This document shows positions 23,507-62,564 of a DNA stretch of 64,000 nt, one piece after another; position 1 is the stretch's first letter; each line of letters opens with the position of its first letter. The notes under the pieces were generated by a model, which saw only the letters and a list, made by a program, of their open reading frames with translations, was not told the DNA's origin and did no database searches. This DNA is from a virus: IMG/VR virus record IMGVR_UViG_3300029404_000062. One strand, 5' to 3'. A program made the translations under genes and the position numbers.

Positions 23507-23669
23507 AACAGTCTCCCTTCTACCGGTCTGCTCCGGCCATCATGATTTTCACTGCATCCGGCAGACTGGGAGGTCCTGTCTTTGAGAGGTCAAGAGCTAC
23601 ATAGTACCCCCCCCCCGAATTTTCTGACGATTCATCATATTCTTTTTCCTTTCCCGGCAAAATGCCGCA

Positions 23670-26600: not shown

Positions 26601-26975
26601 TGCAACTGCACTGTTCGCTGCATCGACTTTCTGAGTGATATCCGCTACATCCTGTGCGGTCATCTTGCGCAGGACTGCCACATCTGATGCAGTATCTGTA
26701 CGAAGCTGCTCTACATCTGCCGCAGTATCCTTGCGGAACTGCTCCACTTCTTCTGCCGTATTCTGACGGTACAGAGCCATCTGCTCCGAGAACCGGGAAC
26801 ACATCGCCCAGTATTCCTCCTGAGACAAAAGCGTTCCGACCGGCACAGGTTTCCGGCTCATATAGCTGTCGCCAGTGGATTCCTCATACACAATGGTAAG
26901 AGGCTCATATTCTTTTGCTTTGTCCCAGACACCATCATGGCGAGGGACGATTCGGTTGCCGATATATTCCGACAT
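23670..26975 (-). CDS. Tail fibre/receptor-binding protein 2 (~1100 aa) with C-terminal SGNH/GDSL hydrolase domain.
   Basis: MSEYIGNRIVPRHDGVWD N-terminus paralogous to fibre 1. C-terminal ICICGDSLVDNGS ... GTNDVSQG (GDSL blocks I and III). Confidence 0.7.
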   Translation of the reverse strand: MSEYIGNRIVPRHDGVWDKAKEYEPLTIVYEESTGDSYMSRKPVPVGTLLSQEEYWAMCSRFSEQMALYRQNTAEEVEQFRKDTAADVEQLRTDTASDVAVLRKMTAQDVADITQKVDAANSAVAASKSEMDKTAETLKAQINANVKASTDKNANYAQELVDARVDDEGKTYPTAGDNIRAVGRVRSMQNIMKNWVIKNGYANQNGNLVASESWRVAHMVPVSGDAILVDGQFGYMSGRDDYNNVVCYDMDRKFLGGCFRAESGKVYDNYVITLLPNTRFISVTTNEKLFSKLSVYLYDNMLPMRLLSNYATGWQWMNGSVDIRFTGSKVTVTFPEGKSVYVCRRTNGTQYEQTKLVAENSTSFDFAVVGKWWAIYYDGAEASANETGEKTEVPVIKVENTSGDSWGDLFTKGRFVFAVFFDWNVVYAAPSSSGTVINGIDYGNPAKIANTAMTWHKYRSAKMFLATGQFAIDRVNRTIQVTKRILAVVDNGAYYWISASEEPVPMLDSTEAEKHHMLILAYDSSIDQINLYNTAQFRALGVNGYYIAAWYENHFWYPHMGSSFSIVLDGTTYKAGELFDEERRDSYIEKKYEDRFQQLRTDLAGKDSRHMYLASGGITIDQDGGTIQVSTKCLGVPDTFHYEWIMAGDPVEMAFNTPSSTFGMPMRILAYDAGTKTINLYDTSLFRKLGTNGFYIASWYQSKLYNPHIHPDVKFIVGGKEYKAGDLFADNAASFIPKRITDYVQKAITPAVEDDIVTPSHWDCMEGRQLSIFFDCLSRHDGKENLYVLARGTNAPSLTRNEYCMNYTPTKDSTDFALTVRRLDEDDCHTVSSKPVQVRVHHKLKDKLTKNICICGDSLVDNGSVATEVYRLLAEDNDCVIHPLGTRGPSGGKHEGRGSWTFARYLADTDYAGKTNAFWDKIKGRLDFQKYCETNGYEGIDYFLIALGTNDVSQGTTLYRTEAEVQKFVDQAKQFIDALLDKETGFPNCKIGIGLCGPGSDYSYQCGSSMGIFHMSINTLNLALIKAFDAGKYHKNVTCFAHGLRTDRRLAFPYSDKPVTNRFTETSRTLTNSIHPSARGYQAWADGYYCQIRAWLTEDSK

Positions 26976-26997
26976 ATTTTCCCCTTTCCCGGCTGCA

Positions 26998-27666
26998 TCA
27001 GCCGTTTGCAAACTCTACGATCAAGCGTCCGTCACCATCCATTGAAAAGATGAGCTTCAGACCATCCTCGGTGGTGAAGGCAAGATAACCGTCATCCGTA
27101 ACCGTACAGTTCAAAAGATTTTCGATGAATTTCTGGATGGTGCTGGATTCCGACTTGTCACTGAAGCCGAGTCCATCCTCCGACACAACGGCAAAATAGC
27201 CATCATCCGTGATATACACTTCCAGCAGTCCCTTGCGGATGGCTTCCACCACGCCAGCGTAGGTATAAGTGGCGATCTTGCCGTTGTTGATGGCTGCCCG
27301 CTCCACCTTCAATGTGAGAGAGAACGACCCAAGGACATCCCCTGCTGCGCTGAGCATAACAACATCCAGCGGAAACCGCCCGGCCTGTGCGGTCATGAAG
27401 GTCGTGATTGTAAAGACGACCGCCCCATTTTCAACAAACACAAGGTCGGATGCCGTCTCGCTGGTGTAATGAAAGATCGTGCCGTCCGGTCTGGTGCCGG
27501 AACAGGCAACAATGCAGTCCTGCGGTACAGAATACTGTACCGAGTTGTTATACAGGACACATCTGACTTTCCGTGCCCTGTTATCATATTGTTTGACCGG
27601 AACTGTCACTGGAATGAGATTTTCCGTCAGCGACAGTTCCACTTCCTGATAAATGCTTGTGATCAT
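26998..27666 (-). CDS. Phage tail/baseplate structural protein (BppU-like), hypothetical.
   Basis: Position between Tal and the fibres. 222 aa with no enzymatic motifs. Confidence 0.35.
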   Translation of the reverse strand: MITSIYQEVELSLTENLIPVTVPVKQYDNRARKVRCVLYNNSVQYSVPQDCIVACSGTRPDGTIFHYTSETASDLVFVENGAVVFTITTFMTAQAGRFPLDVVMLSAAGDVLGSFSLTLKVERAAINNGKIATYTYAGVVEAIRKGLLEVYITDDGYFAVVSEDGLGFSDKSESSTIQKFIENLLNCTVTDDGYLAFTTEDGLKLIFSMDGDGRLIVEFANG

Positions 27667-30428: not shown

Positions 30429-33400
30429 TTACTTGAAGACTGAATCATCCTCGTGGATCATGCCGTTGATCTTATCGGCAACGGTCTGTGCCAGTTCATC
30501 ATCGTTCCGGGCGTTATAGCCATTGACTGTGATATACACACCGCCAAGGTTGGTCGTCCGGGTGGTACCGCCTCCGGCCAGAGCTGTCCGCGGGAAGTTC
30601 CAGCCAGAGCCATCGAAGTGCGGCAGGGTCAGTTCCGGCAGACTGAAGGAACTGATGCCCTCCATACCCTGCTGCACCTTTGCTGCCATCGACTTGATCT
30701 GGCTGATCAGACTGCCTTCTCCTTTCTTGATGCCGCCGGAAAGCAGCTTCATGAAGTCCGGCATATAGGTGTCCGCATCTGCCAGAGGTCCTTCATCCGG
30801 TACCGAGAAGTGCAGGAACGATCGGATACCGCTTGCCACACTCTTGACCGCATTGCCGACCCAGCTGACGCCCTTTTTGATACCTCCGGCGATACCGCCA
30901 ACGATGTCTTTGCCCAAGCTGACCGCCGAGGAAGCCACATTCTTGATACTGCCCCAGATGGACGATGCCACATTGCCGATGGCAGATGCCGCATTGGAGA
31001 TTCCGTTCTTGATGGCATTGACACCGTTCGTGAATACAGAAGTGACCTTGTTCCAAATATTCGTCACACCCTCCCGGAAGCCATCGCAGTTTTTCCAGAG
31101 AGCGGTCAGTCCCAGACCGATGCCGCCAACGGCCGCCACTGCGATACCTGCAGGACCCGCCAGACCAGCAAGTGCTGTGCCTGCGGATGCGAGGAAACCA
31201 CCTGCGGAGCTTGCTACGCCTGCAAGAGCCGTACCCGCACCTGCCGCCAGACCAGATACGGCCGTGCCAACCGAACCGAACAGTCCTGCGATTGCGGAGC
31301 CGGCAGAACCAGCAATTCCGCCCAATGTGGACCCCACACCAGACAGAAGCCCGGAAAGACTGCCGCCTAAACCACCGATCTTCGATACCACACTGGAAAG
31401 CAGTCCGCCCAGATTCGACAGGATTCCACTGCCGCTGGAGCTAAGGCTTCCCAGCTTCGAGATAATGCCAGTGATGCCTTCTCCGAGACCGCCCATCTTG
31501 GAAGTCAACCCAGAGATCAGGTTGCCAAAGTTCGACACAATCTGACCGCCATCTGCACTGCCGATTTTCGACAGGAAACTGCCGATGTTGGACAGCAGAC
31601 CGCCGCCGTTCTCTGTGCCGAGAACATTGCCGAGGTTCTGCATCGTACTTCCAAGGTTTCCAATGGTGTTCTTCATGGAACCGAGCTTGTCCACAAGCCC
31701 CGTGACCGTATTGACCGTGTCACCGACCTTGCTGATGCCGTTGCCCAGGCTCTTTAGGAAATCCGAGTTGAAGGTATCGCCAAGGCTACGGATCGCATTC
31801 CCAAGGGAACTGGTCTGAGAGCTCAGCTCACCAATGGAATCCTTCATATCCGCAAAACCCTGCTTCACTTCATCGCTCATGCCACCGACTGCGGTTTTGG
31901 TGATACCCTGCAGGTCAGTCCAGAGCTGCTGGAACTGTGTTTTCAGACCGGAAAGCCCGGACATCAACTGGGACTGGATACCGCTGCCCACATCCCTTGC
32001 AGCACTACCGATACCGCTCTGACTTTTCTTGATCGTGGTGGCAAAACTGCCGACCACGGAATCCATCCAGTCGCCCAGAGAATCTACCGGGGTCGTGAGG
32101 TTGCTGCTCATAGCCCCAGCAAGTCCCTGCACGGCTTTCACCACCGACTTGACATTTTTCTTAATGCCGGTTGCCAGCAGCTTCATGAAGTCGGGCATAT
32201 AGGTATCTGCATCGGACAGAGGACCCTCGTCTGGTACAGAGAAATGCAACAGACTTCTAACCCTGCTTGCGACATTTTCTGCCGCTGCGATCACGGAACT
32301 AGCCGCTGCCCGGACACCTGCCGCCATCTGGGAACAGATATCTGCACCCCAGCGGTATGCCGAAGAAGCAATCGAACCGAGCGAGTTAAAGCTGCTCCTG
32401 ATACTTGCGACACCAGAAGAAACCGTGCTGCGCAGGCTGGACATTGCCGAAGACACCGTGGACTTGATGCCGTTGAAAGCAGAGGTCGTGGTGGATTTCA
32501 GGGAATTCCAGCCGCTCGTGACCGTACTGCGGACAGCTGTGACAGAAGAAGTCGTAAGAGACTTGATGCTGTTCCATGCTGTCGTAATGACTGTTTTGAT
32601 ACCATTCCAGCTGGTGTTTGTCAGAGTTTTCACTGCGTTCCATGCGCTTGTCATGGAAGATTTTACAGAAGCAGTCGCAGAAGTAGTCAGAGACTTGATT
32701 CCGTTCCATGCTGTAGTGATAACGCTCTTGATTCCGTTCCAGCTGGTCGTTGTCAGCGACTTCACTGCATTCCATGCACTGGTCATGGAAGATTTAACTA
32801 CCGCTGTCGCAGAGGTCACATTGGATCTCACCGCCGCAAAGCTGGTCTGGATGGTGGTCTTGATGCTGTTCCATGTGCTCGTGGTACTGGTCGTAATGGA
32901 GCTCCATGCGGATCTCATCGCGGCACTTACACCTGTCGTTCCGGTCTTCACCGTCTGGCTGATGGCTGCCCAGCTCTTACTGTATGCCTGCTCCACTCCC
33001 CTCATGGAGTTGGTGATGGAGGTAGACAGCGTGGTGGACAGGTTCTCTGCCGCCGCAGTCACAAGGCTGGTGTTGGTCGTGATGCCGTTTGCCAGACCCT
33101 GCATAAAGTCCGGCATCCAGCTTTCCATATCTGCCAGAGGTCCTTCATCCGGCACAGAGAAGTGCAGGAAGGAACGGATACGATCCGCCACTCCCGATAC
33201 GGCACTTGCCACATCCTGAATCCTCGACTGGATACCGGACACAATGTTGCCGATCATGTCAGAGCCCCACGAAAATGCCTGTCCAGCCAGACCCTTGATA
33301 AAGGAGACCGCACTGTTAAAGCCATTCGTGATGGTGGTCTTAATACCGGAAATCGTAGAGGAAATCCCGGATTTCATCGAGTTAAAGGCTGTGGTTGCCG

Positions 33401-36383
33401 CGCTCTTGATGCTGTTACTGAGGGACGAAACCGTAGACTTCATGGCATTCCAGCCGGAGGAAACCACCGATTTGATGCTGTTAACCACACCGGAGATCTT
33501 GCTGCTGATGGCGCTCCAGATGGAAGAAACCGTGGACTGGATCGCAGAAAGGACTGTCGAAATGACCGTCTTGATCGCATTCCATGCCGTACTCATCCTG
33601 GTTTGGATGCCAGTCAGCAGCGGAGACAGGAAGGATACAATGGCGTTCCACACCGTTGTCACTGCAGTCTGGATTGCTGTCAGCACCGTGGAGATAGCCG
33701 TCTGAATCGCTGACCAAACTGTAGAAAAAGTCGTCTGCAATCCAGTCAGCATCGGAGTCACGAAGGCAACGATGGCGTTCCAGATGGAAGTGATCTTCGT
33801 CTGAATTGCGGTCAGTGCTGCGCCGATCAGGATCTGGATCACCTGCCAGATAGTCTCAAACAGATATTTGAACGCATCCAACAGAGGTTTCATGGTGTTG
33901 TAGATGCCATTCCACACCGAAGTGATAGTCGTGCTGATGGTGTTCATGACCGTAGAGATCGCGGTCGAGATTGCCGTCCACACAGTTGTCACCGTGGTAT
34001 GGATTGTATTCATCACAGAAGAAACTGCTGTGGAAATGGCAGTCCAGATGGTGCTGAAGGTCGTCTGGATACTCGTAAGGACGGTGGTGAAAAATCCAGA
34101 CACTGCTGTAAATACAGTCGTTGCTACACTTTGGATAGCGGAAACTGTGTTTGAAAAGAAGCTGCTGATTCCACTCCACACAGTCTCGAAGAAGCTCTTG
34201 ATACTGCCCCAGACCGTCTGCCAGTCCGTACCGAACAGCCCAAGGAACACATCCAGCGCACTCTTCAGAGCAGTAAGGGTCATGGAGAAAATGGACTTCA
34301 CGCCATCCCAGATGCTGGAAAAGATACCCTTTACCGCTTCCCATGCGCCGCTCCAGTTGCTGGAGAACACATTGGAAAAGACATCAAACAAGCCGAGCAG
34401 CGTATCCAGAGCCGTACTCAATACCGTAGCCACAATCTGGAATGCTCCCTCAAACAGCGGTGCAAGCACCTGACAGAAGCCATCCCAGACTGCTTTCAGT
34501 ACCTCAGTTACATCCTTAAAATCAAAGCCCAGCCCGTTGATCCGCTGTATCAGCTGATCACAGAAGCCTTTCACCTTGGAAACGATGTCGTTCCAGATGC
34601 CGGTAATGGCAGCACGGAACTCCTCGTTGGTGTTCCAGAGATTCATAAAAGCCGCCACCAGCGTACCGATGACGGCCACTACAGCTACGACCGGCCCGGA
34701 CAGACCACCCAGAACCACACCCAGCTTGCTGAACACACCGCTGGCACTTCCCACGTGGGTGATGAGAAGCCGGACACCCTTTGCAAGAGAACTGAACCCC
34801 CGCATCGCGGTGCCGACGGTCGATATGGTCTTGCCCAGCACAATGAGCAGCGGACCAATGGATGCCGCCAGCAGCCCGATCTTGATGATCGTTTCCCTGG
34901 TACTTTCATCCATACTGTTCAGCTTGTCCACGAACTGCTGCACGGCAGATACGATCTTACGGATGGTCGGCATCAGGATATCACCAAAAGAAATGGCCAG
35001 CTCTTCCAACTGAGATTTCAGAATGGTGAGCTGACCATTTAAATTGTCCTGCATGGTCTCTGCCATGCTTTCGGATGCACCATCGCAGTTTTCAATGGCT
35101 CCACGCAGTTTGTTGATGTCCGTTTCGCTGGAATTCATCAAGGCAAGGAATCCGGACATAGCATTTTTGCCGACCAGTGCCTCAGCGTTGGCGGCCTTCT
35201 CAGATTCCGACAGCCCGGAAAATGCCACACGGCAGTCCGCAAGGATGTCGTTCAGGCTTCTCATGCTGCCATCTGCGTTGCTGGTCGCAATCGTGACCTC
35301 ACCAATGTTTTTACCCACAAAGGTCACTTCACCGGAAAGGTTGTTCATGATGGTACGAAGGGACGTACCAGCCTGCGAAGCCTTGATACCACTATTTGCC
35401 ATCAGACCGATGGCTTCTGCGGTATCCTCTGCCGAGAATCCCAGCGCACCGGCGATAGGTGCACAGTACTTGAACGTCTCGCCCATCATGGAGACATTGG
35501 TGTTCGCATTGGAAGAAGCAGCTGCAAGGATATCTGCAAAATGCCCGGAATCCGCAGCAGATAAGCCGAACGCGGTAAGGGCATCCGTGACGATATCCGA
35601 AGTCGTAGCGAGGTCTTCACCGGATGCCGCCGCAAGGTTCATGATACCCTCGATGCCGTTCAGCATGTCAGAAGTCTTCCATCCGGCCATGGCCATGTAT
35701 TCCATCGCCGAAGCTGCCTCGGATGCAGAGAACTTGGTCTTTGCACCCATCTCACGGGCTTTTGCACGAAGCTGGTCAAAGTCATCTCCTGTCGCACCGG
35801 AAATGGCAGAAACCTTACTCATCTCGGAATCAAAATCTGCTGCTGTCTTTACTGCGGCCGTACCAAGACCCGTTACAGCGGCAGTCACCGGCAGGAACTT
35901 CTTACCAACATTCTCCACAGAAGATCCGATGTTCTGGAGCTTTTCTCCGGCTTCATCGATTTTGGCAAGAGTCGCATTGGTAGTAGCCGCCTGGTCCTGT
36001 AAGGATCGCAGATTCTGTTCGGTCTCCACGATCTCACGCTGGAGGGCATCGTACTGCTGCTGGGTGATCTCACCGTTGGCAAGCTGCTCATTCGCCTGCT
36101 GTGCCGCAGTCTTCAGAGTTGCCAGCTTTTCCTTGGTAGCTTCAATGGCATCCTTAAGCATCTTCTGCTTCTGGACGACCAGTTCTGTATTGGAGGGGTC
36201 CAGTTTCAGGAGTTTGTTGACATCCTTCAGTCCGGACTGCGTCCCCTTGATTGACTTGTTTACACTTTCCAGTGCTTTGGAGAGCTTTGTGGTATCGCCG
36301 CCGATCTCAACGGTGATGCCCTGGATTCTGGATGCCATATGGATGACCACCTCCTTTTGGGCATGAAAAAAGCCCATCTGCAC
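30429..36383 (-). CDS. Tape measure protein, 1984 aa, with extensive internal degenerate repeats.
   Basis: Size, position after the G/GT chaperones, coiled-coil N-terminus, Gly-rich segments, and repeats of ...TIWTAISTAVSSVMNTI... type. Confidence 0.85.
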   Translation of the reverse strand: MQMGFFHAQKEVVIHMASRIQGITVEIGGDTTKLSKALESVNKSIKGTQSGLKDVNKLLKLDPSNTELVVQKQKMLKDAIEATKEKLATLKTAAQQANEQLANGEITQQQYDALQREIVETEQNLRSLQDQAATTNATLAKIDEAGEKLQNIGSSVENVGKKFLPVTAAVTGLGTAAVKTAADFDSEMSKVSAISGATGDDFDQLRAKAREMGAKTKFSASEAASAMEYMAMAGWKTSDMLNGIEGIMNLAAASGEDLATTSDIVTDALTAFGLSAADSGHFADILAAASSNANTNVSMMGETFKYCAPIAGALGFSAEDTAEAIGLMANSGIKASQAGTSLRTIMNNLSGEVTFVGKNIGEVTIATSNADGSMRSLNDILADCRVAFSGLSESEKAANAEALVGKNAMSGFLALMNSSETDINKLRGAIENCDGASESMAETMQDNLNGQLTILKSQLEELAISFGDILMPTIRKIVSAVQQFVDKLNSMDESTRETIIKIGLLAASIGPLLIVLGKTISTVGTAMRGFSSLAKGVRLLITHVGSASGVFSKLGVVLGGLSGPVVAVVAVIGTLVAAFMNLWNTNEEFRAAITGIWNDIVSKVKGFCDQLIQRINGLGFDFKDVTEVLKAVWDGFCQVLAPLFEGAFQIVATVLSTALDTLLGLFDVFSNVFSSNWSGAWEAVKGIFSSIWDGVKSIFSMTLTALKSALDVFLGLFGTDWQTVWGSIKSFFETVWSGISSFFSNTVSAIQSVATTVFTAVSGFFTTVLTSIQTTFSTIWTAISTAVSSVMNTIHTTVTTVWTAISTAISTVMNTISTTITSVWNGIYNTMKPLLDAFKYLFETIWQVIQILIGAALTAIQTKITSIWNAIVAFVTPMLTGLQTTFSTVWSAIQTAISTVLTAIQTAVTTVWNAIVSFLSPLLTGIQTRMSTAWNAIKTVISTVLSAIQSTVSSIWSAISSKISGVVNSIKSVVSSGWNAMKSTVSSLSNSIKSAATTAFNSMKSGISSTISGIKTTITNGFNSAVSFIKGLAGQAFSWGSDMIGNIVSGIQSRIQDVASAVSGVADRIRSFLHFSVPDEGPLADMESWMPDFMQGLANGITTNTSLVTAAAENLSTTLSTSITNSMRGVEQAYSKSWAAISQTVKTGTTGVSAAMRSAWSSITTSTTSTWNSIKTTIQTSFAAVRSNVTSATAVVKSSMTSAWNAVKSLTTTSWNGIKSVITTAWNGIKSLTTSATASVKSSMTSAWNAVKTLTNTSWNGIKTVITTAWNSIKSLTTSSVTAVRSTVTSGWNSLKSTTTSAFNGIKSTVSSAMSSLRSTVSSGVASIRSSFNSLGSIASSAYRWGADICSQMAAGVRAAASSVIAAAENVASRVRSLLHFSVPDEGPLSDADTYMPDFMKLLATGIKKNVKSVVKAVQGLAGAMSSNLTTPVDSLGDWMDSVVGSFATTIKKSQSGIGSAARDVGSGIQSQLMSGLSGLKTQFQQLWTDLQGITKTAVGGMSDEVKQGFADMKDSIGELSSQTSSLGNAIRSLGDTFNSDFLKSLGNGISKVGDTVNTVTGLVDKLGSMKNTIGNLGSTMQNLGNVLGTENGGGLLSNIGSFLSKIGSADGGQIVSNFGNLISGLTSKMGGLGEGITGIISKLGSLSSSGSGILSNLGGLLSSVVSKIGGLGGSLSGLLSGVGSTLGGIAGSAGSAIAGLFGSVGTAVSGLAAGAGTALAGVASSAGGFLASAGTALAGLAGPAGIAVAAVGGIGLGLTALWKNCDGFREGVTNIWNKVTSVFTNGVNAIKNGISNAASAIGNVASSIWGSIKNVASSAVSLGKDIVGGIAGGIKKGVSWVGNAVKSVASGIRSFLHFSVPDEGPLADADTYMPDFMKLLSGGIKKGEGSLISQIKSMAAKVQQGMEGISSFSLPELTLPHFDGSGWNFPRTALAGGGTTRTTNLGGVYITVNGYNARNDDELAQTVADKINGMIHEDDSVFK

Positions 36384-36423
36384 GGAGCAGACAGGCTAAA
36401 AATGGGTATAAAAATACCCTGCC

Positions 36424-36450
36424 AGCTTTCACCAGCAGGGTTGATTAGAA
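36424..36450 (-). terminator. Terminator hairpin immediately downstream of the DUF234 ATPase gene.
   Basis: CCCTGCCAGCTTTCACCAGCAGGG stem-loop, followed on the minus strand by a T-rich run. Confidence 0.5.
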
Positions 36451-36453
36451 TTT

Positions 36454-37851
36454 TTACTTGTAAAGGTCTTCCAGCGTTATCAGCCGAACTTCACCTCGCT
36501 CTTGTGCCTGAAGAAGTCCATCTGTGAATCCGCCTTTCGAGAAGATATAGTAGTGATAGTTGTTGCCCTTTCCAAAAACTGAAGCATAATCCCGAATCAA
36601 ATCGAGTTCATCCACACCGATTTTCTCATTCCGGTATTTGCATGAACCGATGATATAGTCTTTGCCCTCAACAGGAGTTCCGACGATATCAATCTGTATC
36701 TGCTTTTTCTTCTTCGGGTCTGTCCCCCACCACTGGCCGATTTCACTCAGCTCAATAGGAAGGCTATCCGAATAATAGAGCAGGTAATCCTGACACATCT
36801 TCTCATAAATTAGACCCATGTAATCAGGAAGATACTGCTTTACAGCGTGTGGATAGGTCTTTGCAATTCTGCCAGAGTCAATGGCACTCATATTGATTGG
36901 CACAAACCGATACCAGAAACGGAAGAAGTTATCAGCCAGCAGATAGATGGTTTTCTTACCCGGTTTTTCTGTAATCGGTGTTTCTTTCTTCGCAATGCCA
37001 AGGTCGATCAGCGTTTTCAGGTACTTCGATACGACCGAGTTTTCCTCGCCGACCTTCATCTTGATATCGTTCATTCGGGAAGCACCTTCTGCAATCGCTT
37101 TAATGATTGCATTATAAATGGCCGGCTCCCGGAGTTCCTGCTTCAGTAAGTTCCCCGGTTCCTCATACAGATAGCTGGAGCGGTCAAAGAAATTATCCAA
37201 CAGAGCTTCATCCACACTATCTCGCACATCCAACTTATTGATATAGTGGGGAACTCCTCCCGTGATTCCATAAATCAGGGAATTGTCTTCTGCAGACAGA
37301 TTTGGGTGGAACACAGCGGTTTCTTTATAGTCTAGCGGCTCAATCTTAAACTGTCCAGTACGTCTGCCATACAACGGACTTTCCTTTCCAAGCACCTGAC
37401 TCTCCATGAAGCTCATAGAGGAGCCGCAAAGAATCAGGTACATCTTGGACTCTGTCCATTTGTGGTCGATGATGTGCTGCAGCATCGCTGAAATAGCTGG
37501 TTTTGCTTTTGCAAGATAAGGATACTCATCAATGACAAAGACAATCCTCTTTTCCTTTGAAAGTGCTGTCAGCTCATCCAAAGCTGCATCATAGGACCTG
37601 AACTCCGGTGCAGACTCCATATCCGGCCGCTCAAAACTCATAATCGACTTTGAGAGAGCTTCCAGATTTTCCTTTCCTGTCGTGTTCAATGCAGAAAAGA
37701 AAATGGTAGGCTTATCTTTGCAGAACTCGTTGATCAGTGCCGTTTTACCAACACGCCGTCTGCCGTAGATGACAATGCACTCAAACTTATCACCTGCATA
37801 CCGTTTATTCAGTTTCCGCAGCTCATCCTCACGGCAATAGAATTGACTCAT
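36454..37851 (-). CDS. AAA+ ATPase of the COG1672 type (Arch_ATPase domain + C-terminal DUF234, predicted nuclease-like). Low-GC moron inserted between the tail chaperones and the TMP.
   Basis: Walker A GRRRVGKTAL, Walker B VFVIDEYPYL. ~44% GC against ~57% in flanking phage genes. Own promoter and terminator. Confidence 0.7.
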   Translation of the reverse strand: MSQFYCREDELRKLNKRYAGDKFECIVIYGRRRVGKTALINEFCKDKPTIFFSALNTTGKENLEALSKSIMSFERPDMESAPEFRSYDAALDELTALSKEKRIVFVIDEYPYLAKAKPAISAMLQHIIDHKWTESKMYLILCGSSMSFMESQVLGKESPLYGRRTGQFKIEPLDYKETAVFHPNLSAEDNSLIYGITGGVPHYINKLDVRDSVDEALLDNFFDRSSYLYEEPGNLLKQELREPAIYNAIIKAIAEGASRMNDIKMKVGEENSVVSKYLKTLIDLGIAKKETPITEKPGKKTIYLLADNFFRFWYRFVPINMSAIDSGRIAKTYPHAVKQYLPDYMGLIYEKMCQDYLLYYSDSLPIELSEIGQWWGTDPKKKKQIQIDIVGTPVEGKDYIIGSCKYRNEKIGVDELDLIRDYASVFGKGNNYHYYIFSKGGFTDGLLQAQERGEVRLITLEDLYK

Positions 37852-37911
37852 CTGCTCACCTCCAATAATTACACTCGTGAGTTAGTAACTCGTAAGTTAC
37901 TTCTTTACGAG

Positions 37912-37943
37912 TATAATAAATCAGATAGTCTGCAAAGTCAAGT
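37912..37943 (-). promoter_or_regulatory. Near-consensus sigma-A promoter driving the DUF234 ATPase moron.
   Basis: Minus-strand TTGACT, 17-nt spacer, TATTAT, followed by a 5'-UTR hairpin CTCGTAA...TTACGAG and RBS GGAGGTG. Confidence 0.5.
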
Positions 37944-37959
37944 AAAATAAGTCGAACCT

Positions 37960-38187
37960 TTAGAATCGATCGAAGTCCGACTGACTTGCCAGCTCTTTGT
38001 ACGGATAGTCGTCGTTCTGCCGCTCTGTGAACATATCATTGACCAACCCGATGGTCAGCAGGTCGAGGTCGGCAATGCTGATACCGAGCTGTACACAGCG
38101 CAGCAGAAAGAGCGGGGTGGTCATTTCCCGCTCACTTTTTCGAGGTTTTTTCTGGATTCCACCTCCGTCTGCACATTCAGGCCCCAC
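37960..38187 (-). CDS. Tail assembly chaperone T segment. Expressed as a G-T fusion by -1 programmed frameshift.
   Basis: ORF in the -1 frame overlaps the 3' end of the G gene. Frame arithmetic and reading after the slippery site give KKPRKSEREMTTPLF, matching this ORF. Confidence 0.65.
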   Translation of the reverse strand: MGPECADGGGIQKKPRKSEREMTTPLFLLRCVQLGISIADLDLLTIGLVNDMFTERQNDDYPYKELASQSDFDRF

Positions 38188-38501
38188 AGTTCGATCAGCT
38201 GGGGCAGGATCTGGTAGATGGAGAAGGTGTTGAACTGGTCCAGGAACTCCTCCGGGCTGTCCGGCACATTCGCAGGGTCAGCATGACGGGCCATCAACCA
38301 TGCCAGGTCCTCGAACATCTCCAGACTGAAAAGGTCGAGGTTGGAATTGTCCTCATCGTTCTCCCCTACGCTCTTTTCCAGCTGGCGCAAGTCTTTGTAA
38401 ATGTCACGGCCGAACTTGATACGGTACAGGCGGGGTACAGCGGCACTTGCCTTAAAGGTGACTTCCTTGCCATCGATCTCGATTTTCTTTGTAACTGCCA
38501 T
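38121..38501 (-). CDS. Tail assembly chaperone G.
   Basis: Start MAVTKKIEIDGKEV with RBS GGAGG. Sits in the conserved position between the major tail protein and TMP. Acidic C-terminus. Confidence 0.7.
   Translation of the reverse strand: MAVTKKIEIDGKEVTFKASAAVPRLYRIKFGRDIYKDLRQLEKSVGENDEDNSNLDLFSLEMFEDLAWLMARHADPANVPDSPEEFLDQFNTFSIYQILPQLIELWGLNVQTEVESRKNLEKVSGK
38145..38151 (-). promoter_or_regulatory. -1 programmed ribosomal frameshift slippery heptamer A_AAA_AAC (mRNA sense) in the G/GT overlap. A second G_AAA_AAG lies 9 nt downstream.
   Basis: Zero-frame codons AGA AAA AAC CTC GAA AAA GTG. Shift to -1 yields the T ORF. Confidence 0.6.
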
Positions 38502-38567
38502 AATCGTAATCCTCCAAAATTTCATGTAAAATTGGCAGAGCCGAAGCCCTGCCATATATCGTGTTTC

Positions 38568-39395
38568 TTACTCTGCCGGGTCAATGCTCACCAGTGCATT
38601 ACTGCCACTCACAGTCGGCAGCTTTCCATCCCACTTCTGGATCTTCTGGTAATCGATCAGCGTATCGGACAGGCTTTCTGCCAGTTTGCGGTTTGCCTCT
38701 GCCTGTGCATCTGCGGCAATGGAAGTCTTCTGGGCTTCTGCCTCTGCATTGGTGATCGCCACCTGCTTATCGGCTTCTGCCTTGGCAATGGCGGCTTCGT
38801 TCTCGATCTTCTGCTTATCTGCGTTCTGCTGTGCAATGGACTTCTGCTGGATGGCGGCATTGTAGGCTTCCTCGAAATTCATGTCGTTGACGACGACCTT
38901 GTTTACGAACACAACATCCTCACCATATTTCTGCACAAGGGACTCTGCCAGCTTCTGCTGTGCCAGAGGCTCGATCTTGGTACGGTTGGTTACCTCATTG
39001 GGACCAAGTTCTGCCATCGCAGACTTGATTGCCGATGCCACTAACTCATCACCGACCAGATTCTTGATGTCGGACACATTCGCATACAGCCATGCGCTCT
39101 TTTCAGGAAGCACCTGATAGGTCACGATGACATCAGCGGCATACACAGGAGTCTTGTCGGAGGCTTCGCCCCAGACCTGCGCCTCGATATGCTTATCCTG
39201 CTGCTTGTTGTTGACCTTATGGATGCTCTGCACAAAAGGAATGCAGAAATTGAGCTTGCCACTCTGGATGGTGGTCTCCTGGATCTGACCAAAGCTGGTC
39301 TTCACGCCGGTGTAGCCGGTGGGAATGATGTGGAACGAACAGATAGCCAGCACCAGAACGATGATCACTGCGAACAAAGGAAAAATCTTCTTCAT
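38568..39395 (-). CDS. SPFH/band-7 (prohibitin/HflC-like) membrane protein. Moron between the major tail protein and chaperone genes.
   Basis: N-terminal TM helix IFPLFAVIIVLVLAICSF, SPFH core, C-terminal Ala/Glu/Lys-rich coiled-coil (AEAEAQKTSIAADAQAEANRKLAE). Confidence 0.7.
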   Translation of the reverse strand: MKKIFPLFAVIIVLVLAICSFHIIPTGYTGVKTSFGQIQETTIQSGKLNFCIPFVQSIHKVNNKQQDKHIEAQVWGEASDKTPVYAADVIVTYQVLPEKSAWLYANVSDIKNLVGDELVASAIKSAMAELGPNEVTNRTKIEPLAQQKLAESLVQKYGEDVVFVNKVVVNDMNFEEAYNAAIQQKSIAQQNADKQKIENEAAIAKAEADKQVAITNAEAEAQKTSIAADAQAEANRKLAESLSDTLIDYQKIQKWDGKLPTVSGSNALVSIDPAE

Positions 39396-39457: not shown

Positions 39458-40072
39458 TTAGCCCTGCGGCTCCTCGGTGTGACTGGTGTCTTCAGTGTCC
39501 ACAGCTTCTGCCTGCGGCTCATAGACCGCATCGTACCACTTGTTATAGACATCATCGGTGGTGTTGGTGCCGGTCTTTGCCTTAACATAACCGTTTGCCA
39601 GAGGGGTTGCCTGCAGGTTCAGGGTGTCCGTCTTGACTTCCTTGCTGTCCTCATTGGTCTCACCCTCGATGGACGGACGGCTTGCCACACAGTTGTACAG
39701 CACATGACGGATGTGGCGCTGGTCGCCATCGAACTCAAACAGGAATGCGAAATGCTCCAGTTCCACGTTGGCGTTCTCAGCAAGCACGCCATTGCCATCC
39801 AACTCCTCGTGCATGATGTCCGTGAGGAAGCTCTCCGGGATCAGCGCGATCTCCAGATCCCCCTCATAGCCGGAGTTGTTATTCACGACATAGTAGGCGA
39901 TATTGTCCGCATAGAACGGCTCGATCTCGCCATTGGCATCCATAGAAAGACTGACGGCACCGGGAATACGGACCGGCTTTGCATAGGTGACACTGCCATC
40001 TTCGTCAAAGGTCGCCTTGGCATAATGGCAGTTTTTCAGGCCAAATTTGACCTTATTGCTTTTCTTCGACAT
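39458..40072 (-). CDS. Major tail protein.
   Basis: Position upstream of the chaperones. N-terminus MSKKSNKVKFGLKNCHYAKATFDEDGSVTYAKPVRIPGAVSL is typical of siphovirus major tail proteins. 204 aa. Confidence 0.7.
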   Translation of the reverse strand: MSKKSNKVKFGLKNCHYAKATFDEDGSVTYAKPVRIPGAVSLSMDANGEIEPFYADNIAYYVVNNNSGYEGDLEIALIPESFLTDIMHEELDGNGVLAENANVELEHFAFLFEFDGDQRHIRHVLYNCVASRPSIEGETNEDSKEVKTDTLNLQATPLANGYVKAKTGTNTTDDVYNKWYDAVYEPQAEAVDTEDTSHTEEPQG

Positions 40073-42770: not shown

Positions 42771-43670
42771 TCACTTCATGCACTCAAGCTGTTTCATCAG
42801 GATATTGTAGGGAATGCTGCCATCCTCGGTCTTTCCGTCCATGTCAAGGACAGGACCGGAATTGGCAGGTGGTTCAGCCGGAGGGGTAGGCTCTGCGGAC
42901 GGTTTCGGGTCAGCAGGTGGCTCCTTCGGCTCAGTGTGTTTCTGGCCCACATCTTCCGGCTTCACACCCAGACGGTTCAGGACGATTAGATCCATCTGAC
43001 GGCTGGAGAAAAGGTGCCCTGCCGTATCCTTCTGGAACGGCTTCTTTTCTTCGCCCTCGCCCGGTTCACTGTCAGGGTCTTCTTCCGGATTCTCCGGATC
43101 TGCCGGGTCACTGTCCGGCTCTTCCTCTTTCTTTGCAAAGAGGATCTCATCTGCAAAGCCCAGCTCCACCGCCTTCTTCGCATTCATCCAGGTCTCATTG
43201 CTCATGAGGTTGGCGATGCGGGCATGGCTGAGTCCGCTCTTTGCAGCATAGGCATTGATGATGCTCTCCTTGACTTCGTTCAGCACCTCGATGGCCTTCT
43301 CCATGTCCTTGGTGTTGCCCATCGCAACGGTGCTGGGGTCATGGATCATCAGCATGGCGACAGGACTCATCTGGACAGTATCACCGGCCATTGCGACAAC
43401 AGATGCCGCCGAAGCTGCAATCGCATCGATCTTGACCGTGATGCTGCCCTTGTAATCCTTAAGCATGGTATAAATCTCGGCGGCGGCGAACACATTTCCG
43501 CCCGGACTGTTGATCCAGACGGTCACATCCCCCTCGCCGGATTCCAGCTCATCCCGGAACATCTGCGGCGTGATCTCATCGCCCCAGAAAGATTCCTCAT
43601 CGATGGGTCCTTCCAGCCGGAGAATTCTGGTGTCATCACTGTTTTTGATCCAGTTCCAGAATTTCTTCAT
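42771..43670 (-). CDS. Prohead maturation protease (ClpP/S14-like) with acidic scaffold-like C-terminus.
   Basis: WINSPGGNVFAAAEIYTML...IDAIAASAASVVAMAGD...MLMIHDPS carries the ClpP-family catalytic-centre pattern. Confidence 0.8.
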   Translation of the reverse strand: MKKFWNWIKNSDDTRILRLEGPIDEESFWGDEITPQMFRDELESGEGDVTVWINSPGGNVFAAAEIYTMLKDYKGSITVKIDAIAASAASVVAMAGDTVQMSPVAMLMIHDPSTVAMGNTKDMEKAIEVLNEVKESIINAYAAKSGLSHARIANLMSNETWMNAKKAVELGFADEILFAKKEEEPDSDPADPENPEEDPDSEPGEGEEKKPFQKDTAGHLFSSRQMDLIVLNRLGVKPEDVGQKHTEPKEPPADPKPSAEPTPPAEPPANSGPVLDMDGKTEDGSIPYNILMKQLECMK

Positions 43671-45064
43671 CGGGTTCTCCTTCCTGTTTTTTGTGGCTTA
43701 CTCTCACTCAGCCGGTTATCGCTGTCAGGTTCGTCTTCCGGGTCGGGCTGTGTCTGTTTCGGCTGATTCTGCTGGACTGCGGCAGCTTTATTCTGCTGTG
43801 CCACTCCTGCATCTTTCAGCTTCACATAGCCGCCGTTCAGATAATAATCGTCACCGCCCTCCTCTGCCGGGATGAGATCCATGTTCTCCAGACGATGCAC
43901 ATCATTCGGAGAGAGGAAGCCGTTACTGATGCCGGTCGCATAACCGTTCATCCGGCTCTGGTAGTCACCACGGAGCAGACCGTCCACATTGAATTTCGGG
44001 AAGTAGGTGTCCTGCTCCTCTTCCAGCAGCAGATCCTTGATGATGCCCTGCTCGATGCGGACAAGCCACGGGGTCAGGGAGTGCATCACGAAGTTCAGCG
44101 ACTGGTATTCAATGTTGGAGAAGGTCGCCCTGGACAGATCGGCTACCAGATGCGGAGGCACACGGAAGATGCGGCAGATCTCCGTCACGGAAAACTGCTT
44201 CGTTTCCAAAAACTGGCTGTCCTCCGGTGGCAGGGAGATTGGTTTGTAGGCCATGCCCTCTTCCAGCACAGCCACACGATGGGCATTGGCTGCACCGCCA
44301 TAAGCCGCCTCCCAGCTATCCCGGATACGGTTCGGGTCTTTTACAACGCCGGGATGCTCCAGCACACCGCTGGGCTGTGCGCCGTTCTTGAAGAAGGAGG
44401 AACCGTATTTATCTACCGCAATGGAAGTGCCGAGGCTGTTCTTCATCATAGCGATTGGCGAGAAACCGATCAGGCCATTAAACCCAAGCCCCGGCACATG
44501 AAAGATCTCGTCCCGGCGGAAGTAGAGGTCCTTGTTCTGTTCTCCCGGAACTTCATCCGTGTATGCGTGGTAGATATAGTAGAGCTCGCCACTCTCATCT
44601 CGGTCCACTTCGACATTTTCCGGCATCAGCGGATACAGACCCAGCACCGTATTCTTGCCATCTCGGACGATCTGCGCGTAAGCGTTGCCCCAGAGAAGCA
44701 GGTGGGTCATCAGCGTTTCCCAGAAGACAAAGGATGTCATCTCCGGGTTGGGCTGGCGATACAGGATCTTGTACAGCGGATGATCCCGTGCCTTTTCCTT
44801 GTTGCCGTTGTCGTCTGTCACCCGGTAGAGATGCAGCGGCAGTGCCGCAATGGACTCTGCCAGCAGACGAACACAGGCATACACGGTCGGGATCTGCATG
44901 GCGGCTTTCTCATCCACCTGCTCCCCGGCATTGGAACGGCCAAACACAAAGGTCTGCCCGGAATCGCGGACATTATCCGTGACCTGCGGCAGACCTTCTT
45001 TTGGCTGTTCTGTTTTGGGAGAATCCCTTGGGTTCTCAAACCCCATCCATTCCCAGAATCCCAT
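43667..45064 (-). CDS. Portal protein (HK97-family).
   Basis: 465 aa between terminase and protease; start overlaps the protease stop by 4 nt. Confidence 0.75.
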   Translation of the reverse strand: MGFWEWMGFENPRDSPKTEQPKEGLPQVTDNVRDSGQTFVFGRSNAGEQVDEKAAMQIPTVYACVRLLAESIAALPLHLYRVTDDNGNKEKARDHPLYKILYRQPNPEMTSFVFWETLMTHLLLWGNAYAQIVRDGKNTVLGLYPLMPENVEVDRDESGELYYIYHAYTDEVPGEQNKDLYFRRDEIFHVPGLGFNGLIGFSPIAMMKNSLGTSIAVDKYGSSFFKNGAQPSGVLEHPGVVKDPNRIRDSWEAAYGGAANAHRVAVLEEGMAYKPISLPPEDSQFLETKQFSVTEICRIFRVPPHLVADLSRATFSNIEYQSLNFVMHSLTPWLVRIEQGIIKDLLLEEEQDTYFPKFNVDGLLRGDYQSRMNGYATGISNGFLSPNDVHRLENMDLIPAEEGGDDYYLNGGYVKLKDAGVAQQNKAAAVQQNQPKQTQPDPEDEPDSDNRLSESKPQKTGRRTR

Positions 45065-52044: not shown

Positions 52045-52508
52045 TCGACCCAGCCCCCTTTCACGATTGCCCAGTCTGCAAGCTGCATCTTCTGCTGTCC
52101 GCCCCATGCAATATCCTCTAACGCTTCCTCCGTTCCGCAGCGGTTGCAGATCTGAATGTCCGCCCTTCGACTGAGTGCCTGCTGCTGATGGGCGTAGCAG
52201 TCAGGATTTGCTCCGCACCTGGGGCAACGTGGTCCGGTCTGTCGCGTTTTTCCAAGCCGGTCGAGCGACACCTTGACCTCGGCATCCGTTGCCACACGGT
52301 GGCAACTGTCCGCGCCGTAGGAAATGTTCAGATGGCTTCCGGTGTCCCAGCTCACTAAGATGTTTCCGGCATCATCAACCCCGTTGCAGGTTCCCTGCGT
52401 TCCGATGGGCGGTGCCTGCCTGTCATCCATCTCATCGAGGATGATCCGGCATCCGACCGGGAACTCTTTTCTCAACTTCTTGACCATTTTCTGATCTGCG
52501 AAATTCAT
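52041..52508 (-). CDS. DUF4314-like protein with C-terminal zinc-ribbon.
   Basis: VGCRIILDEMDDRQAPPIGTQGTCNGVDDAGNILVSWDTGSHLNISYGADSCHRV (DUF4314-like) plus CPRCG...CNRCG. Confidence 0.45.
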   Translation of the reverse strand: MNFADQKMVKKLRKEFPVGCRIILDEMDDRQAPPIGTQGTCNGVDDAGNILVSWDTGSHLNISYGADSCHRVATDAEVKVSLDRLGKTRQTGPRCPRCGANPDCYAHQQQALSRRADIQICNRCGTEEALEDIAWGGQQKMQLADWAIVKGGWVE

Positions 52509-52984: not shown

Positions 52985-53114
52985 TTGAATCTCTCCCTTC
53001 GGTTTTCTCCGCTCTTGTCTGGCGGTATGGTATATATCACTCTTTTGCCCTGATTTATCAAGGCCGATGAGCATCATATACTGCACAGTGTTTTTTTCCT
53101 GTGATCGTGTACTC

Positions 53115-53865: not shown

Positions 53866-53932
53866 AAACCTGCACCTCCTTCTACCACCTCAAGGGCGGT
53901 TGCCCGCCCAAAAGGTGCCCGTGCATCCCGGC

Positions 53933-54868: not shown

Positions 54869-54897
54869 GGTATGTTCTCCTTTGTTTTTTCCTTGTT

Positions 54898-54996: not shown

Positions 54997-55100
54997 TTTC
55001 TGCAGTTTATCCGCTTGATAATGTACATTTTCAGAGTTAATATCGTTACAATGAAAGAGGGTCTCGCATATTTTCCGTCCCCCATTGGGAGCTTGGGAGC

Positions 55101-62561: not shown

Positions 62562-62564
62562 GGC

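Follow-up and report, generated by a model that had tools for sequence, protein, structure and literature searches.

A PDC-S27-family ATPase gene as probable moron cargo in a variable slot between the tail chaperone and tape-measure genes of a Heliusvirales-like gut prophage

Defence-gene hotspots of temperate phages and their satellites were reportedly described for P2 and P4 by Rousset et al. in 2022, and Dedrick et al. are said to have reported the prophage defences of cluster N mycobacteriophages in 2017 (both in the reference list of PMC10884400). As in these hotspots, the locus analysed here offers a fixed slot between conserved phage genes to many alternative cargoes, mostly of the defence, TA or Abi kind, in phages that otherwise hardly differ. 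In contrast to them, the slot is embedded in the tail operon of a Heliusvirales-like phage from the gut, between GT and the tape-measure protein (TMP) gene, and has conserved hairpins at its borders. The Heliusvirales paper (PMC11283538) does not mention this GT-TMP cargo slot. The closest precedent is gene 15 of HK97, the first element to be called a moron, which sits between the tail chaperone and tape-measure genes, is absent in close relatives and has a deviant GC content along with its own promoter and terminator; its expression from the prophage and a protective effect against superinfection have been proposed (Juhala et al. 2000 and Cumby et al. 2012, reviewed in PMC3594210). Our insert has exactly the same genomic position and shares the absence in close relatives, the deviating GC and the promoter and terminator, both of which are predicted here. 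However, HK97 gp15, whose function was tested, is a small protein of the inner membrane and acts by blocking DNA entry, whereas the present product is a 465-aa cytoplasmic ATPase-winged helix-nuclease-like protein of putative function. The hosts also differ, E. coli for HK97 and a member of the gut Clostridia here.

At the protein level, our search identified a full-length match to the single-gene PADLOC system PDC-S27 (PDLC04984, E 2.8e-56, aa 1-411 of 465), with which the protein shares an ATPase fused to a PD-(D/E)xK domain. PDC-S27 is a 'guilt-by-embedding' defence candidate (Payne et al., bioRxiv 10.1101/2024.01.29.577857; PMC12988326), and one representative of the family in E. coli B gave no protection against T7, T5 or T4 (PMC12881386). 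The family was defined from chromosomal genes embedded in RM, BREX or DISARM loci, whereas here it is phage cargo. A 90%-identical homologue does adjoin the type I RM genes hsdM/hsdS, the 'embedding' context that defines PDCs. Our literature search on DUF234, COG1672, PF03008 and PF01637 found no functional study.

The window, by which we mean the whole 64,000-nucleotide stretch of IMG/VR record IMGVR_UViG_3300029404_000062, comes from a Heliusvirales-like prophage in the chromosome of a gut Clostridia member. At one end the prophage has two genes for large serine recombinases, and its other products include a C5 methyltransferase, a ParB-N6 methyltransferase and a SAM synthetase. The 465-aa ORF is flanked by G/GT tail-chaperone ORFs and the tape-measure gene, and the locus is made up as follows.

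37960..38555, minus strand: G/GT-like pair of tail assembly chaperones (G, 38121-38555; T frame, 37960-38187), bordering the slot on the left
36398..37959, minus strand: inserted DNA, 1562 bp (1.56 kb), from the first base past the T stop codon to the last one ahead of the conserved backbone hairpin
36409..37950, minus strand: minimal cassette, 1542 bp, comprising promoter, leader, ORF and terminator (BLASTN/megablast against unrelated chromosomal and mobile-element contexts, with reading of the junctions)
37913..37941, minus strand: predicted sigma-70-type promoter, TTGACT-17-TATTAT, 10/12 consensus matches
37873..37912, minus strand: leader repeat array of three 9-mer copies, putative operator, read in the sequence
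37859..37863, minus strand: ribosome-binding site GGAGG, read in the sequence, 7 nt 5' of the ATG
36454..37851, minus strand: PDC-S27-family ORF, 465 aa, ATG start
36408..36441, minus strand: intrinsic terminator of the cassette, 11-bp stem (ACCCTGCTGGT/GCTGGCAGGGT) plus T-run, from folding, with the hairpin at 36441-36416
36371..36397, minus strand: phage-backbone hairpin plus T-run just 5' of the TMP ribosome-binding site, right-hand border of the slot
30429..36338, minus strand: tape-measure protein gene, 1969 aa, ATG at 36338 (PhageMin_Tail, E 2e-52; phrog_1272, E 2e-289)

We set the borders of the insert from homology breakpoints and from empty-site phages in which the T stop is joined directly to the TMP start. 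The G and T ORFs match phrog_709 (E 1.3e-39) and phrog_3033 (E 2.8e-23), respectively. They overlap, lie between the major tail and TMP genes, and contain a canonical -1 slippery heptamer (A_AAA_AAC, read in the sequence at 38151-38145), the arrangement of a G/GT pair with a predicted frameshift. The gene order is that of Heliusvirales phages, and the tape-measure gene as called in one relative (L005) likewise gives a 1969-aa product. The ORF, its Pfam domains and the PHROG assignments of its neighbours agree with the first-pass annotation, which had placed a COG1672-type ATPase with DUF234 between the G/GT chaperones and the TMP.

The base composition of the insert deviates from that of its surroundings. 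GC is 0.450 for the ORF and 0.440 for the insert compared with 0.523-0.526 in the flanks and 0.539 in the TMP gene, and the insert is the minimum among 917 prophage windows of the same size (z = -3.4). A GC content about 13% below that of the neighbours had been claimed at first; it is indeed lower, but by 8-9 percentage points, or about 16% in relative terms, and not by 13 points. We then compared the junction among 80 IMG/VR loci with a G protein at least 98% identical, in 62 of which it could be determined. This presence/absence check, proposed along with the original annotation, revealed the ATPase cassette in 5 phages, an empty site in 1 and other cargo in 56. Empty junctions were found in L131, with a 72-bp gap by tblastn, and in L001 (PV036444), with 14 bp between the annotated CDSs. 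In deposited relatives the site is either empty or occupied by an ORF on the opposite strand or by an acetyltransferase. The alternative cargoes are of about ten kinds, including ParE/Phd, YoeB, Abi_2/AbiD, AbiEi/AbiEii, DUF3990 (PDC-M13) and DUF6036; most are TA, Abi or defence-candidate genes, and their GC is 0.39-0.46 compared with 0.54 at the empty site. The earlier view that phage genomes rarely tolerate insertions at this position is contradicted by HK97 gene 15 at the same spot (PMC3594210) and by our finding that the junction is a hypervariable hotspot. Conserved hairpins are present after T in most cargo types and before TMP even at the empty site. Exchange tracts extend into the 3' end of T, indicating homologous recombination via the conserved flanking tail genes.

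A scan for sites like the predicted promoter (TTGACT at 37941-37936, a 17 nt spacer, TATTAT at 37918-37913) was by itself not above chance, with 4 sites found and 3.0 expected. We nevertheless regard the promoter as credible because it travels with homologues in unrelated contexts, occurring in 73 of 88 unique upstream regions, and the near-consensus promoter first proposed for this gene is upheld in silico. The same can be said of the proposed terminator, since the intrinsic hairpin at 36441-36416, with its T-run, is present in every context in which the cassette was found. Together with the second hairpin (36397-36371) it folds at -38.7 kcal/mol (z = -5.4). We considered both terminators as the gene's own and rejected this, as the second is part of the phage backbone: it is seen in L131, whose site is empty, and of the 11 cargo-class representatives shown, 9 have it (in a variant form in L126 and L144) and the other two, L138 and L182, do not. 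Because the gene is oriented like the late operon and is not preceded by a terminator, it may in addition be transcribed together with the tail genes. In the lysogen, transcription would start from the cassette's own predicted promoter. With its presence in only 5 of 62 near-identical phages, the empty sites, the foreign GC and a promoter and terminator that are both predicted and conserved in unrelated contexts, the proposal of a moron inside the tail module is well supported, and the stretch 37959-36398 is almost certainly moron or cargo DNA, that is, a horizontally acquired and self-contained transcription unit.

The repeat array begins immediately 3' of the -10 box with an inverted copy, ACTCGTAAA (37912-37904), followed by CTTACGAGT (37896-37888) and CTCACGAGT (37881-37873), and the motif has no further occurrence within the window. 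In homologous upstream regions the repeats accompany the gene until protein identity falls to about 85%, and GGAGG is retained in nearly all of them; the distant homologues L100 and L101 have 3-4 direct repeats at 15-16-bp spacing. The leader had been described as structured, but its folding energy is unexceptional (MFE z = -0.62). Each of two alternative pairings has 89% paired cells, equal to the shuffled expectation, and the leader alignment contains no covariation in excess of shuffles for either pairing. What is conserved is a 9-bp repeat array, and we rejected an RNA fold, which neither thermodynamics nor covariation supports. An apparent compensatory change in one leader (L053) is an isolated case. 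The array, which overlaps both the -10 box and the predicted start site of transcription, would serve as an operator, perhaps one that the protein itself binds as a repressor through its winged helix. In six phages a 30-bp leader-repeat copy lies beside other cargo, and this makes it less likely that the repeat serves autoregulation of the PDC-S27 gene specifically.

The protein can be divided into three parts.

aa 1 to about 210: ORC/Cdc6-STAND-like P-loop ATPase, Walker A G30-T37, Walker B D108-E109
about aa 211-310: helical lid and winged helix
about aa 330-465: Mrr-like PD-(D/E)xK domain (DUF234), with E350, Q386, D388, S403 and K405

Pfam assigns ATPase_2 (PF01637; E 5.5e-27, aa 4-207) with 95.5 bits against a gathering cut-off of 33.2, and DUF234 (PF03008; E 4.3e-18, aa 313-408) above its gathering score. 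Walker A (G30-RRRVGK-T37) and the Walker B pair D108-E109 are retained among 51 diverse and 92 close homologues, as befits a P-loop ATPase. A single-sequence AF2 model was unusable (pLDDT 42) and was replaced by one from the 51-sequence alignment (pLDDT 96). In this model the C-terminal elements (helix 338-359, strands 368-378, 383-393 and 398-405, helix 413-426, strand 431-438) form the core alpha-beta-beta-beta-alpha-beta PD-(D/E)xK fold. DUF234 is family 76 in a PD-(D/E)xK listing (PMC3424549). The C-terminal profile, which we ran as the check suggested for a nuclease-like fold, matches AF1548 (1y88, E 1.5e-5) and LlaBIII (4xqk, E 0.041; residues 25-154) over the (E)ID...(E)xK core, so the ATPase and nuclease-fold signatures are both real. 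We take AF1548 and the N-terminal region of LlaBIII to be Mrr-type nuclease folds, which the modelled topology of our domain resembles.

The active site differs from that of these relatives. E350, D388 and K405 of the catalytic signature are present, but E403 is replaced by S and the conserved E386 by Q, in contrast to the E/E of the PDC-S27 family and to the Mrr-like proteins. Two of the four family-conserved acids are thus replaced in 91 of 92 gut-clade alleles, fixed in the clade, and a nuclease function should not be taken for granted. The motif-III acid of LlaBIII, an active nuclease, is itself replaced by Q in the profile alignment; S403 therefore need not abolish catalysis. We consider a nucleolytic mechanism possible but doubtful. 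Strong purifying selection acts on all three domains. In structure the protein comes nearest to 2qen/2fna and Orc/Cdc6/NLR rather than to transposition ATPases. However, the archaeal Walker-type ATPases PABY2304 (2qen) and SSO1545 (2fna) and Orc1/Cdc6 have about 350 aa and lack a C-terminal DUF234 domain. Avs/AVAST and other STAND NTPase defence proteins with nuclease effectors have an N-terminal nuclease and TPR, WD or other sensor repeats at the C-terminus, whereas in this protein of 465 aa the nuclease-like domain is C-terminal, only DUF234 follows the winged helix, and PADLOC returned no Avs match.

Outside the phage, we identified the cassette at 99.2-99.9% DNA identity in unrelated chromosomal contexts (BLASTN against L004-L011; megablast against L004), and a public assembly collection lists the identical protein in 23,818 blocks. 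Promoter, three-copy 9-bp repeat leader, ORF and terminator stay together wherever the cassette occurs. Some chromosomal copies still have parts of T and TMP from the phage attached and show IS66-family ends at their borders, from which we conclude that the phage-borne allele has moved back into bacterial genomes. Other contexts include Shedu SduA_C, Cap15 and AAA_15/21 as neighbours, and no conserved partner gene was seen across the contexts compared. Among 32 species-level chromosomal homologue loci the neighbourhoods are mixed, with scattered defence hits among ordinary genes, a scan without a control that is suggestive only. Homologues, distant ones included, occur in only 8 of 50,697 deposited phage records, and the gene does not belong to the phage core.

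These observations bear on several rival explanations. A structural or assembly gene of the tail would fit the position inside the tail module and the co-orientation with the late genes, and these are the only points in its favour. We rejected this explanation: the presence/absence pattern refutes it, and a foreign GC, an own predicted promoter and terminator and the occurrence of the same cassette in non-phage contexts all speak against it, as do the lack of a PHROG match for the ATPase and of a full-length viral structural analogue in BFVD. Its probability is close to nil. Another possibility is a regulatory or DNA-transaction protein for the prophage or other mobile elements, such as an ORC-like initiator, a partition factor or a lysogeny modulator binding iteron-like repeats, with no role in phage exclusion. 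The ORC/Cdc6-like ATPase and winged helix, the degenerate nuclease site and the iterated repeats beside the gene, including those of L100 and L101, are what such a protein would have. However, 57 of the 62 near-identical phages do without the gene, which is thus dispensable to the phage, it stands alone in many non-mobile chromosomal settings, and its slot otherwise holds TA and Abi genes. We regard this as very unlikely.

The gene could also be selfish or linked to mobility, with the ATPase-winged helix-nuclease and the repeats aiding the cassette's own maintenance or spread by addiction, by homing-like cuts at empty sites or by selecting targets for neighbouring insertion sequences in the manner of the TniB/TnsC/MuB ATPases. 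When junctions were read across contexts, however, the cassette ends had neither terminal inverted repeats nor target-site duplications, which led us to reject self-mobilisation. The junctions vary by context and are explained by IS66 inverted repeats, intron segments and phage T/TMP fragments, and the IS66 elements carry their own tnpA/B/C. Older alleles (76-95% identical) are stable in chromosomes under strong purifying selection, and the fold is not that of a transposition ATPase, so this explanation seems unlikely. A more specific form of the defence reading is a modification-dependent (type IV, Mrr-like) or restriction-like ATP-dependent endonuclease that cuts foreign-modified DNA, with the prophage methyltransferases and SAM synthetase either unrelated or setting the 'self' pattern. 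The presence of these enzymes is in keeping with it, as are the AF1548 and LlaBIII matches, the activity of LlaBIII despite its Q, and the homologue beside type I RM genes. Yet the protein has no recognisable modification-reading domain and has lost both E386 and E403, and we think it quite unlikely that it acts in this way.

On balance, a moron in a cargo slot that encodes a plausible anti-phage or anti-MGE ATPase is the explanation that we favour as probable. An anti-phage or anti-MGE role taken for itself is plausible, and we weigh its chances evenly. The TA, Abi and defence-candidate cargoes at the same junction are circumstantial support for a role in defence or exclusion. The first-pass annotation had called the gene a candidate defence or superinfection-exclusion factor; the candidacy remains plausible given this shared slot, although the one PDC-S27 representative examined gave no protection in E. 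coli B. We propose that the protein would be an ATP-controlled DNA-binding factor directed against incoming phage or other mobile DNA. It might act by cleavage or, considering the Q386/S403 active site, by non-canonical or non-catalytic engagement of DNA. We can also imagine, as an improbable extension, that the GT-TMP junction is a dedicated platform, bordered by two conserved hairpins, that actively shuffles single- and two-gene immunity cargoes, and that the PDC-S27 cassette represents a truly new defence in a single gene, has its own repeat operator, and escaped the phage to spread as protein-identical copies over gut Lachnospiraceae via IS66 composite elements and group II intron remnants.

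Prophage morons and defence hotspots are already well known, and the finding itself is unsurprising. For an extremely prevalent candidate family such as PDC-S27, a place in a slot that otherwise holds AbiD, AbiE and TA modules is independent 'guilt by hotspot' evidence, and the native cassette, from promoter to terminator, is ready for testing. The slot is hypervariable, belongs to the tail operon of a phage lineage that is among the most widespread in the human gut, and could yield further candidates such as DUF3990/PDC-M13 and the DUF6036 nucleotidyltransferase. Finally, the cassette copies that retain phage tail-gene fragments document traffic from phage to chromosome.

The ATPase gene lies within a prophage whose closest deposited relatives are Ca. 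Heliusvirales gut phages, to which it is ~70% identical in DNA sequence across G and TMP. From left to right, the prophage carries serine recombinases, an endolysin, GDSL-domain proteins, the tape-measure gene (TMP), the ATPase gene, T, G, an SPFH gene, the major tail, capsid and portal genes, TerL/TerS, and methyltransferases with a SAM synthetase.

Landmarks in and beside the prophage
2674-4122, phosphoglucomutase, a host gene left of the prophage
13519-18210, two large serine recombinases
between the serine recombinases and the GDSL-domain genes, endolysin
21224-27011, GDSL-domain proteins, probably tail fibres
ATG at 36338, downstream of the ATPase gene, tape-measure protein of 1969 aa (PhageMin_Tail, E 2e-52; phrog_1272, E 2e-289)
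36454-37851 (-), ATPase gene, ORF of 465 aa
37960-38187 (-), T, overlapping the G ORF (phrog_3033, E 2.8e-23)
38121-38555 (-), G, upstream of the ATPase gene (phrog_709, E 1.3e-39)
39458-40072, probable major tail protein, from Pfam calls in the syntenic locus L005
41508-42713, probable capsid gene, from Pfam calls in L005, not from the window scan
43667-45064, probable portal gene, from Pfam calls in L005, not from the window scan
right of the portal gene, TerL and TerS

The overlapping ORFs upstream of the ATPase gene, linked through a canonical -1 slippery heptamer (A_AAA_AAC, 38151-38145), are predicted to be a G/GT-type tail chaperone pair. We found that the junction between T and TMP is a hypervariable cargo slot in this phage lineage. 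In deposited relatives it holds 14 bp (PV036444), an opposite-strand 326-aa ORF (PV036433) or an acetyltransferase (PV036432). We then considered 80 IMG/VR loci (L112-L191) with a G protein at least 98% identical, 62 of which had a measurable junction. By Pfam and PADLOC, its contents (at the equivalent of window 36398-37959) sorted into twelve classes.

Contents of the T-TMP junction (loci out of 62)
ParE/Phd toxin-antitoxin, 17
DUF3990 (= PDC-M13) with small ORFs, three variants, 10 + 5 + 4
Abi_2/AbiD, 8
AbiEi/AbiEii, 6
465-aa ATPase gene, 5
AbiEi with HTH and DUF6036 nucleotidyltransferase, 3
AbiEi with group II intron reverse transcriptase, 1
AbiEi with Phd/ParE, 1
YoeB toxin-antitoxin, 1
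empty (72 bp), 1

Every cargo is AT-rich (GC 0.39-0.46, versus 0.54 at the empty site). Across near-identical loci T is 77-96% identical, as against at least 98% for G and 94-100% for the TMP N-terminus, so that exchange tracts extend into the 3' end of T; the pattern points to cargo exchange by homologous recombination through conserved tail genes. The first-pass annotation had held, wrongly, that phage genomes rarely tolerate insertions at this position: HK97 gene 15, the first element ever called a moron, likewise lies between tail chaperone and tape-measure genes (PMC3594210). Its reading of the ATPase gene as a moron is strongly supported, with the gene present in 5 of the 62 near-identical phages and other cargo or an empty junction elsewhere. 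The slot goes unmentioned in one Heliusvirales paper that we consulted (PMC11283538). A conserved long hairpin, CAGACGACCGTGCTTAT...ATAAGCACGGTCGTCTG, comes directly after the T stop (~15-70 nt) in L113, L117, L118, L119, L134 and L182 and is common to different opposite-strand cargoes (ParE/Phd, DUF3990, AbiD, YoeB); absent from the ATPase cargo, it probably terminates transcription in both directions and marks where the slot is bordered on the left.

The GC content of the ATPase ORF (0.450) and of the 1562-bp insert (0.440) falls below that of the flanks (0.523-0.526) and TMP (0.539), and the insert is the minimum among 917 same-size prophage windows (z = -3.4). The gene had been described as about 13% lower in GC than its neighbours; the direction is right but the drop is 8-9 percentage points. 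The promoter predicted for it, TTGACT-17-TATTAT (37941-37913), agrees with the consensus at 10 of 12 positions. The promoter scan by itself was no better than chance (4 sites versus 3.0 expected), and we accept the promoter because it is conserved: this type is found in 73 of 88 unique upstream regions of homologues, in unrelated genomic contexts, and in 60 of those 73 the same leader repeat directly follows the -10 box. The gene also appears to have its own terminator, as had been proposed, in a hairpin (36441-36416) with a T-run that accompanies the cassette in every context.

This hairpin and a second one at 36397-36371 jointly fold at -38.7 kcal/mol (z = -5.4). Membership of the second hairpin in the ATPase unit was ruled out: L131, whose site is empty, has it too, as do 9 of the 11 representatives of cargo classes that were compared (as a variant in two of the 9; absent in L138 and L182), and it therefore belongs to the phage backbone. 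This backbone hairpin, GCCTGTCTGC...GCAGATGGGC TTTT at 36371-36397 (-), closely precedes the ribosome-binding site of TMP. It bounds the slot on the right and resembles a terminator or attenuator lying within the late tail operon. Since an empty site, too, has the hairpin and T-run, transcripts of the late genes must pass a terminator-like signal in any case, and readthrough there may explain the tolerance of terminator-bearing cargo.

The original observation was confirmed except for the structured leader, which found no support: the fold z-score is -0.62, and each of two candidate pairings gave 89% paired cells, as many as shuffled alignments would give, and no covariation above that level. 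Rather, the leader holds three copies of a 9-mer found nowhere else in the window:

37912-37904, ACTCGTAAA, copy 1, inverted
37896-37888, CTTACGAGT, copy 2
37881-37873, CTCACGAGT, copy 3

With its first base directly behind the -10 box, the array covers the predicted transcription start, a geometry suggestive of a putative operator through which the repeats would regulate the ATPase gene. In the Oribacterium-type homologues L100, L101 and L103 (82-83% identical), 3-4 direct TTAYGATTCAG repeats spaced 15-16 bp apart replace the 9-mers in an iteron-like arrangement. A 30-bp copy (90% identical) of the repeat at 37902-37873 adjoins the backbone hairpin in DUF3990-cargo phages that have no ATPase gene beside it (BLASTN positions L117 6876-6905, L143 6891-6920, L187 7109-7138, with exact motif matches about 2 nt further in; motif matches only in L129, L167 and L169). 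Two readings fit this copy: a scar left by an ATPase cassette that was once there, or a repeat that is an independent cis element.

Nor is the mobility of the cassette confined to the phage. The assembly collection lists the identical 465-aa protein in 23,818 blocks, and among eight long-contig places listed, only one is the prophage (L005, a 5.39-Mb contig of GCA_020297485.1). The other seven carry a 1542-bp unit (window 37950-36409) at 99.2-99.9% identity beside IS66/ISL3 transposases, Shedu SduA_C, Cap15, AAA_15/21, an HD protein or a serine-recombinase element. L007 and L011 keep 148 bp of the phage T gene upstream of the cassette and L008 keeps the first ~70 bases of TMP, which indicates that some chromosomal copies of the phage allele derive from phage. 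In L007 the same IS66-type end, GTAAGTAGGTAATCATCCG, lies on both flanks in a composite-transposon-like arrangement. A 231-nt match to Rfam RF02005 (group II intron D1-D4) abuts the upstream end of the cassette in L004, L006, L008, L010 and L021 (locus 5669-5904), and matches to intron D5-D6 (RF00029) lie downstream in L006 (8719-8794) and L008 (8213-8287); judged from these matches, an ORF-less group II intron may hold the cassette in its domain IV. The TMP fragment of L008 is followed by a truncated ORF for a reverse transcriptase with a YADD motif. IS66-family terminal repeats bound the cassette and T fragment in L007 (~5754) and L011 (~7467), and the same T fragment is found on short contigs of Fusicatenibacter (L034), Roseburia (L036), Jutongia (L106) and a Lachnospiraceae MAG (L032).

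In a set with a single genome for each species we counted 277 stretches that encode relatives. The best 80 (76-100% identity) come mostly from Lachnospiraceae, some from Oscillospiraceae and a few from MAGs assigned to other phyla, and most have a non-phage context; a 90%-identical allele has type I RM hsdM/hsdS on one side and the trp operon on the other. The family is large, with 8746 representatives at the 50%-identity level. Few deposited phages carry it: 8 among 50,697 records, each at <36% identity.

Profile analysis confirmed the ATPase and DUF234 assignments, with PF01637 (ATPase_2, aa 4-207, E 5.5e-27) and PF03008 (DUF234, aa 313-408, E 4.3e-18) both exceeding their gathering scores. 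In a 51-sequence alignment of diverse homologues, Walker A is G30-RRRVGK-T37 and Walker B D108-E109. AF2 with this alignment gave pLDDT 96.1 and pTM 0.92. By its structural relatives, the N-terminal part is an ATPase of the ORC/Cdc6-STAND-like kind that carries a helical lid and a winged helix. The profile of the C-terminal part (alpha-beta-beta-beta-alpha-beta) matches AF1548 (1y88, E 1.5e-5) and aligns with residues 25-154 of LlaBIII (E 0.041), both of them Mrr-type nuclease domains. DUF234 has been listed as a PD-(D/E)xK family by Steczkiewicz et al. (PMC3424549). The proposed nuclease-like C-terminus would thus stand, but without a canonical active site: the family consensus is E350...E386-I-D388...E403-C-K405, whereas the window protein and 91 of 92 unique gut-clade alleles have Q386 and S403. 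LlaBIII has Q at the aligned motif-III acid position. As dN/dS is 0.03-0.05 in each of the three domains, we conclude that the C-terminal domain is functional despite this non-canonical active site.

In sum, where other phages of the lineage have mostly TA/Abi genes, this slot holds an accessory, mobile gene under strong constraint, with an ATPase-winged helix-nuclease-like product. A defence role is plausible, and better motivated because of the cargo hotspot: the gene would be expressed in the lysogen, and the protein might provide ATP-controlled DNA targeting against incoming phage or other mobile DNA. PADLOC matched the protein full-length to PDC-S27 (E 2.8e-56), more weakly to PDC-S01, and to none of its validated systems. 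Against a defence role, PDC-S27 is a 'guilt-by-embedding' candidate only (bioRxiv 10.1101/2024.01.29.577857), and one representative in E. coli B gave no protection against T7, T5 or T4 (PMC12881386). Further, in an uncontrolled scan around 32 species-level chromosomal homologues, defence genes (Dsr2, AbiLi, AriA, NsnB, PDC-S01/S04/S05, SoFic, AbiEii) are only scattered amid ordinary neighbours. What we describe is a prophage moron in a defence/TA hotspot, carrying an already known candidate family.

Elsewhere in the prophage, a 275-aa SPFH/Band_7 protein (phrog_200 'lipoprotein'; 38568-39395, -; GC 0.519, phage-like) is encoded between the major tail gene and G, which directly adjoin in PV036444, PV036433 and PV036432; it is a second lineage-specific insertion within the tail module, followed by a terminator-like hairpin (38554-38533), and no promoter was found upstream of it. 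The stretch 52505-63761 (-) looks like an anti-restriction or DNA-modification module, with a GGACT-like protein (52505-53086), an amidoligase (53933-54997), a C5 cytosine methyltransferase (56509-58737), a ParB-N6/N4 methyltransferase (59497-60765) and a SAM synthetase (62565-63761). Left of the prophage, a small element (7552-10453, -) encodes a 613-aa large serine recombinase and an AAA_25 ATPase, and a similar pair adjoins the ATPase cassette in L009 (595-3415). Just outside the prophage, the lowest GC of the window (0.39-0.43, ~10400-12400) surrounds an AAA_21 (OLD/AbiEii-like ABC ATPase) gene (11666-12817, -), and this stretch may be another defence-type island.
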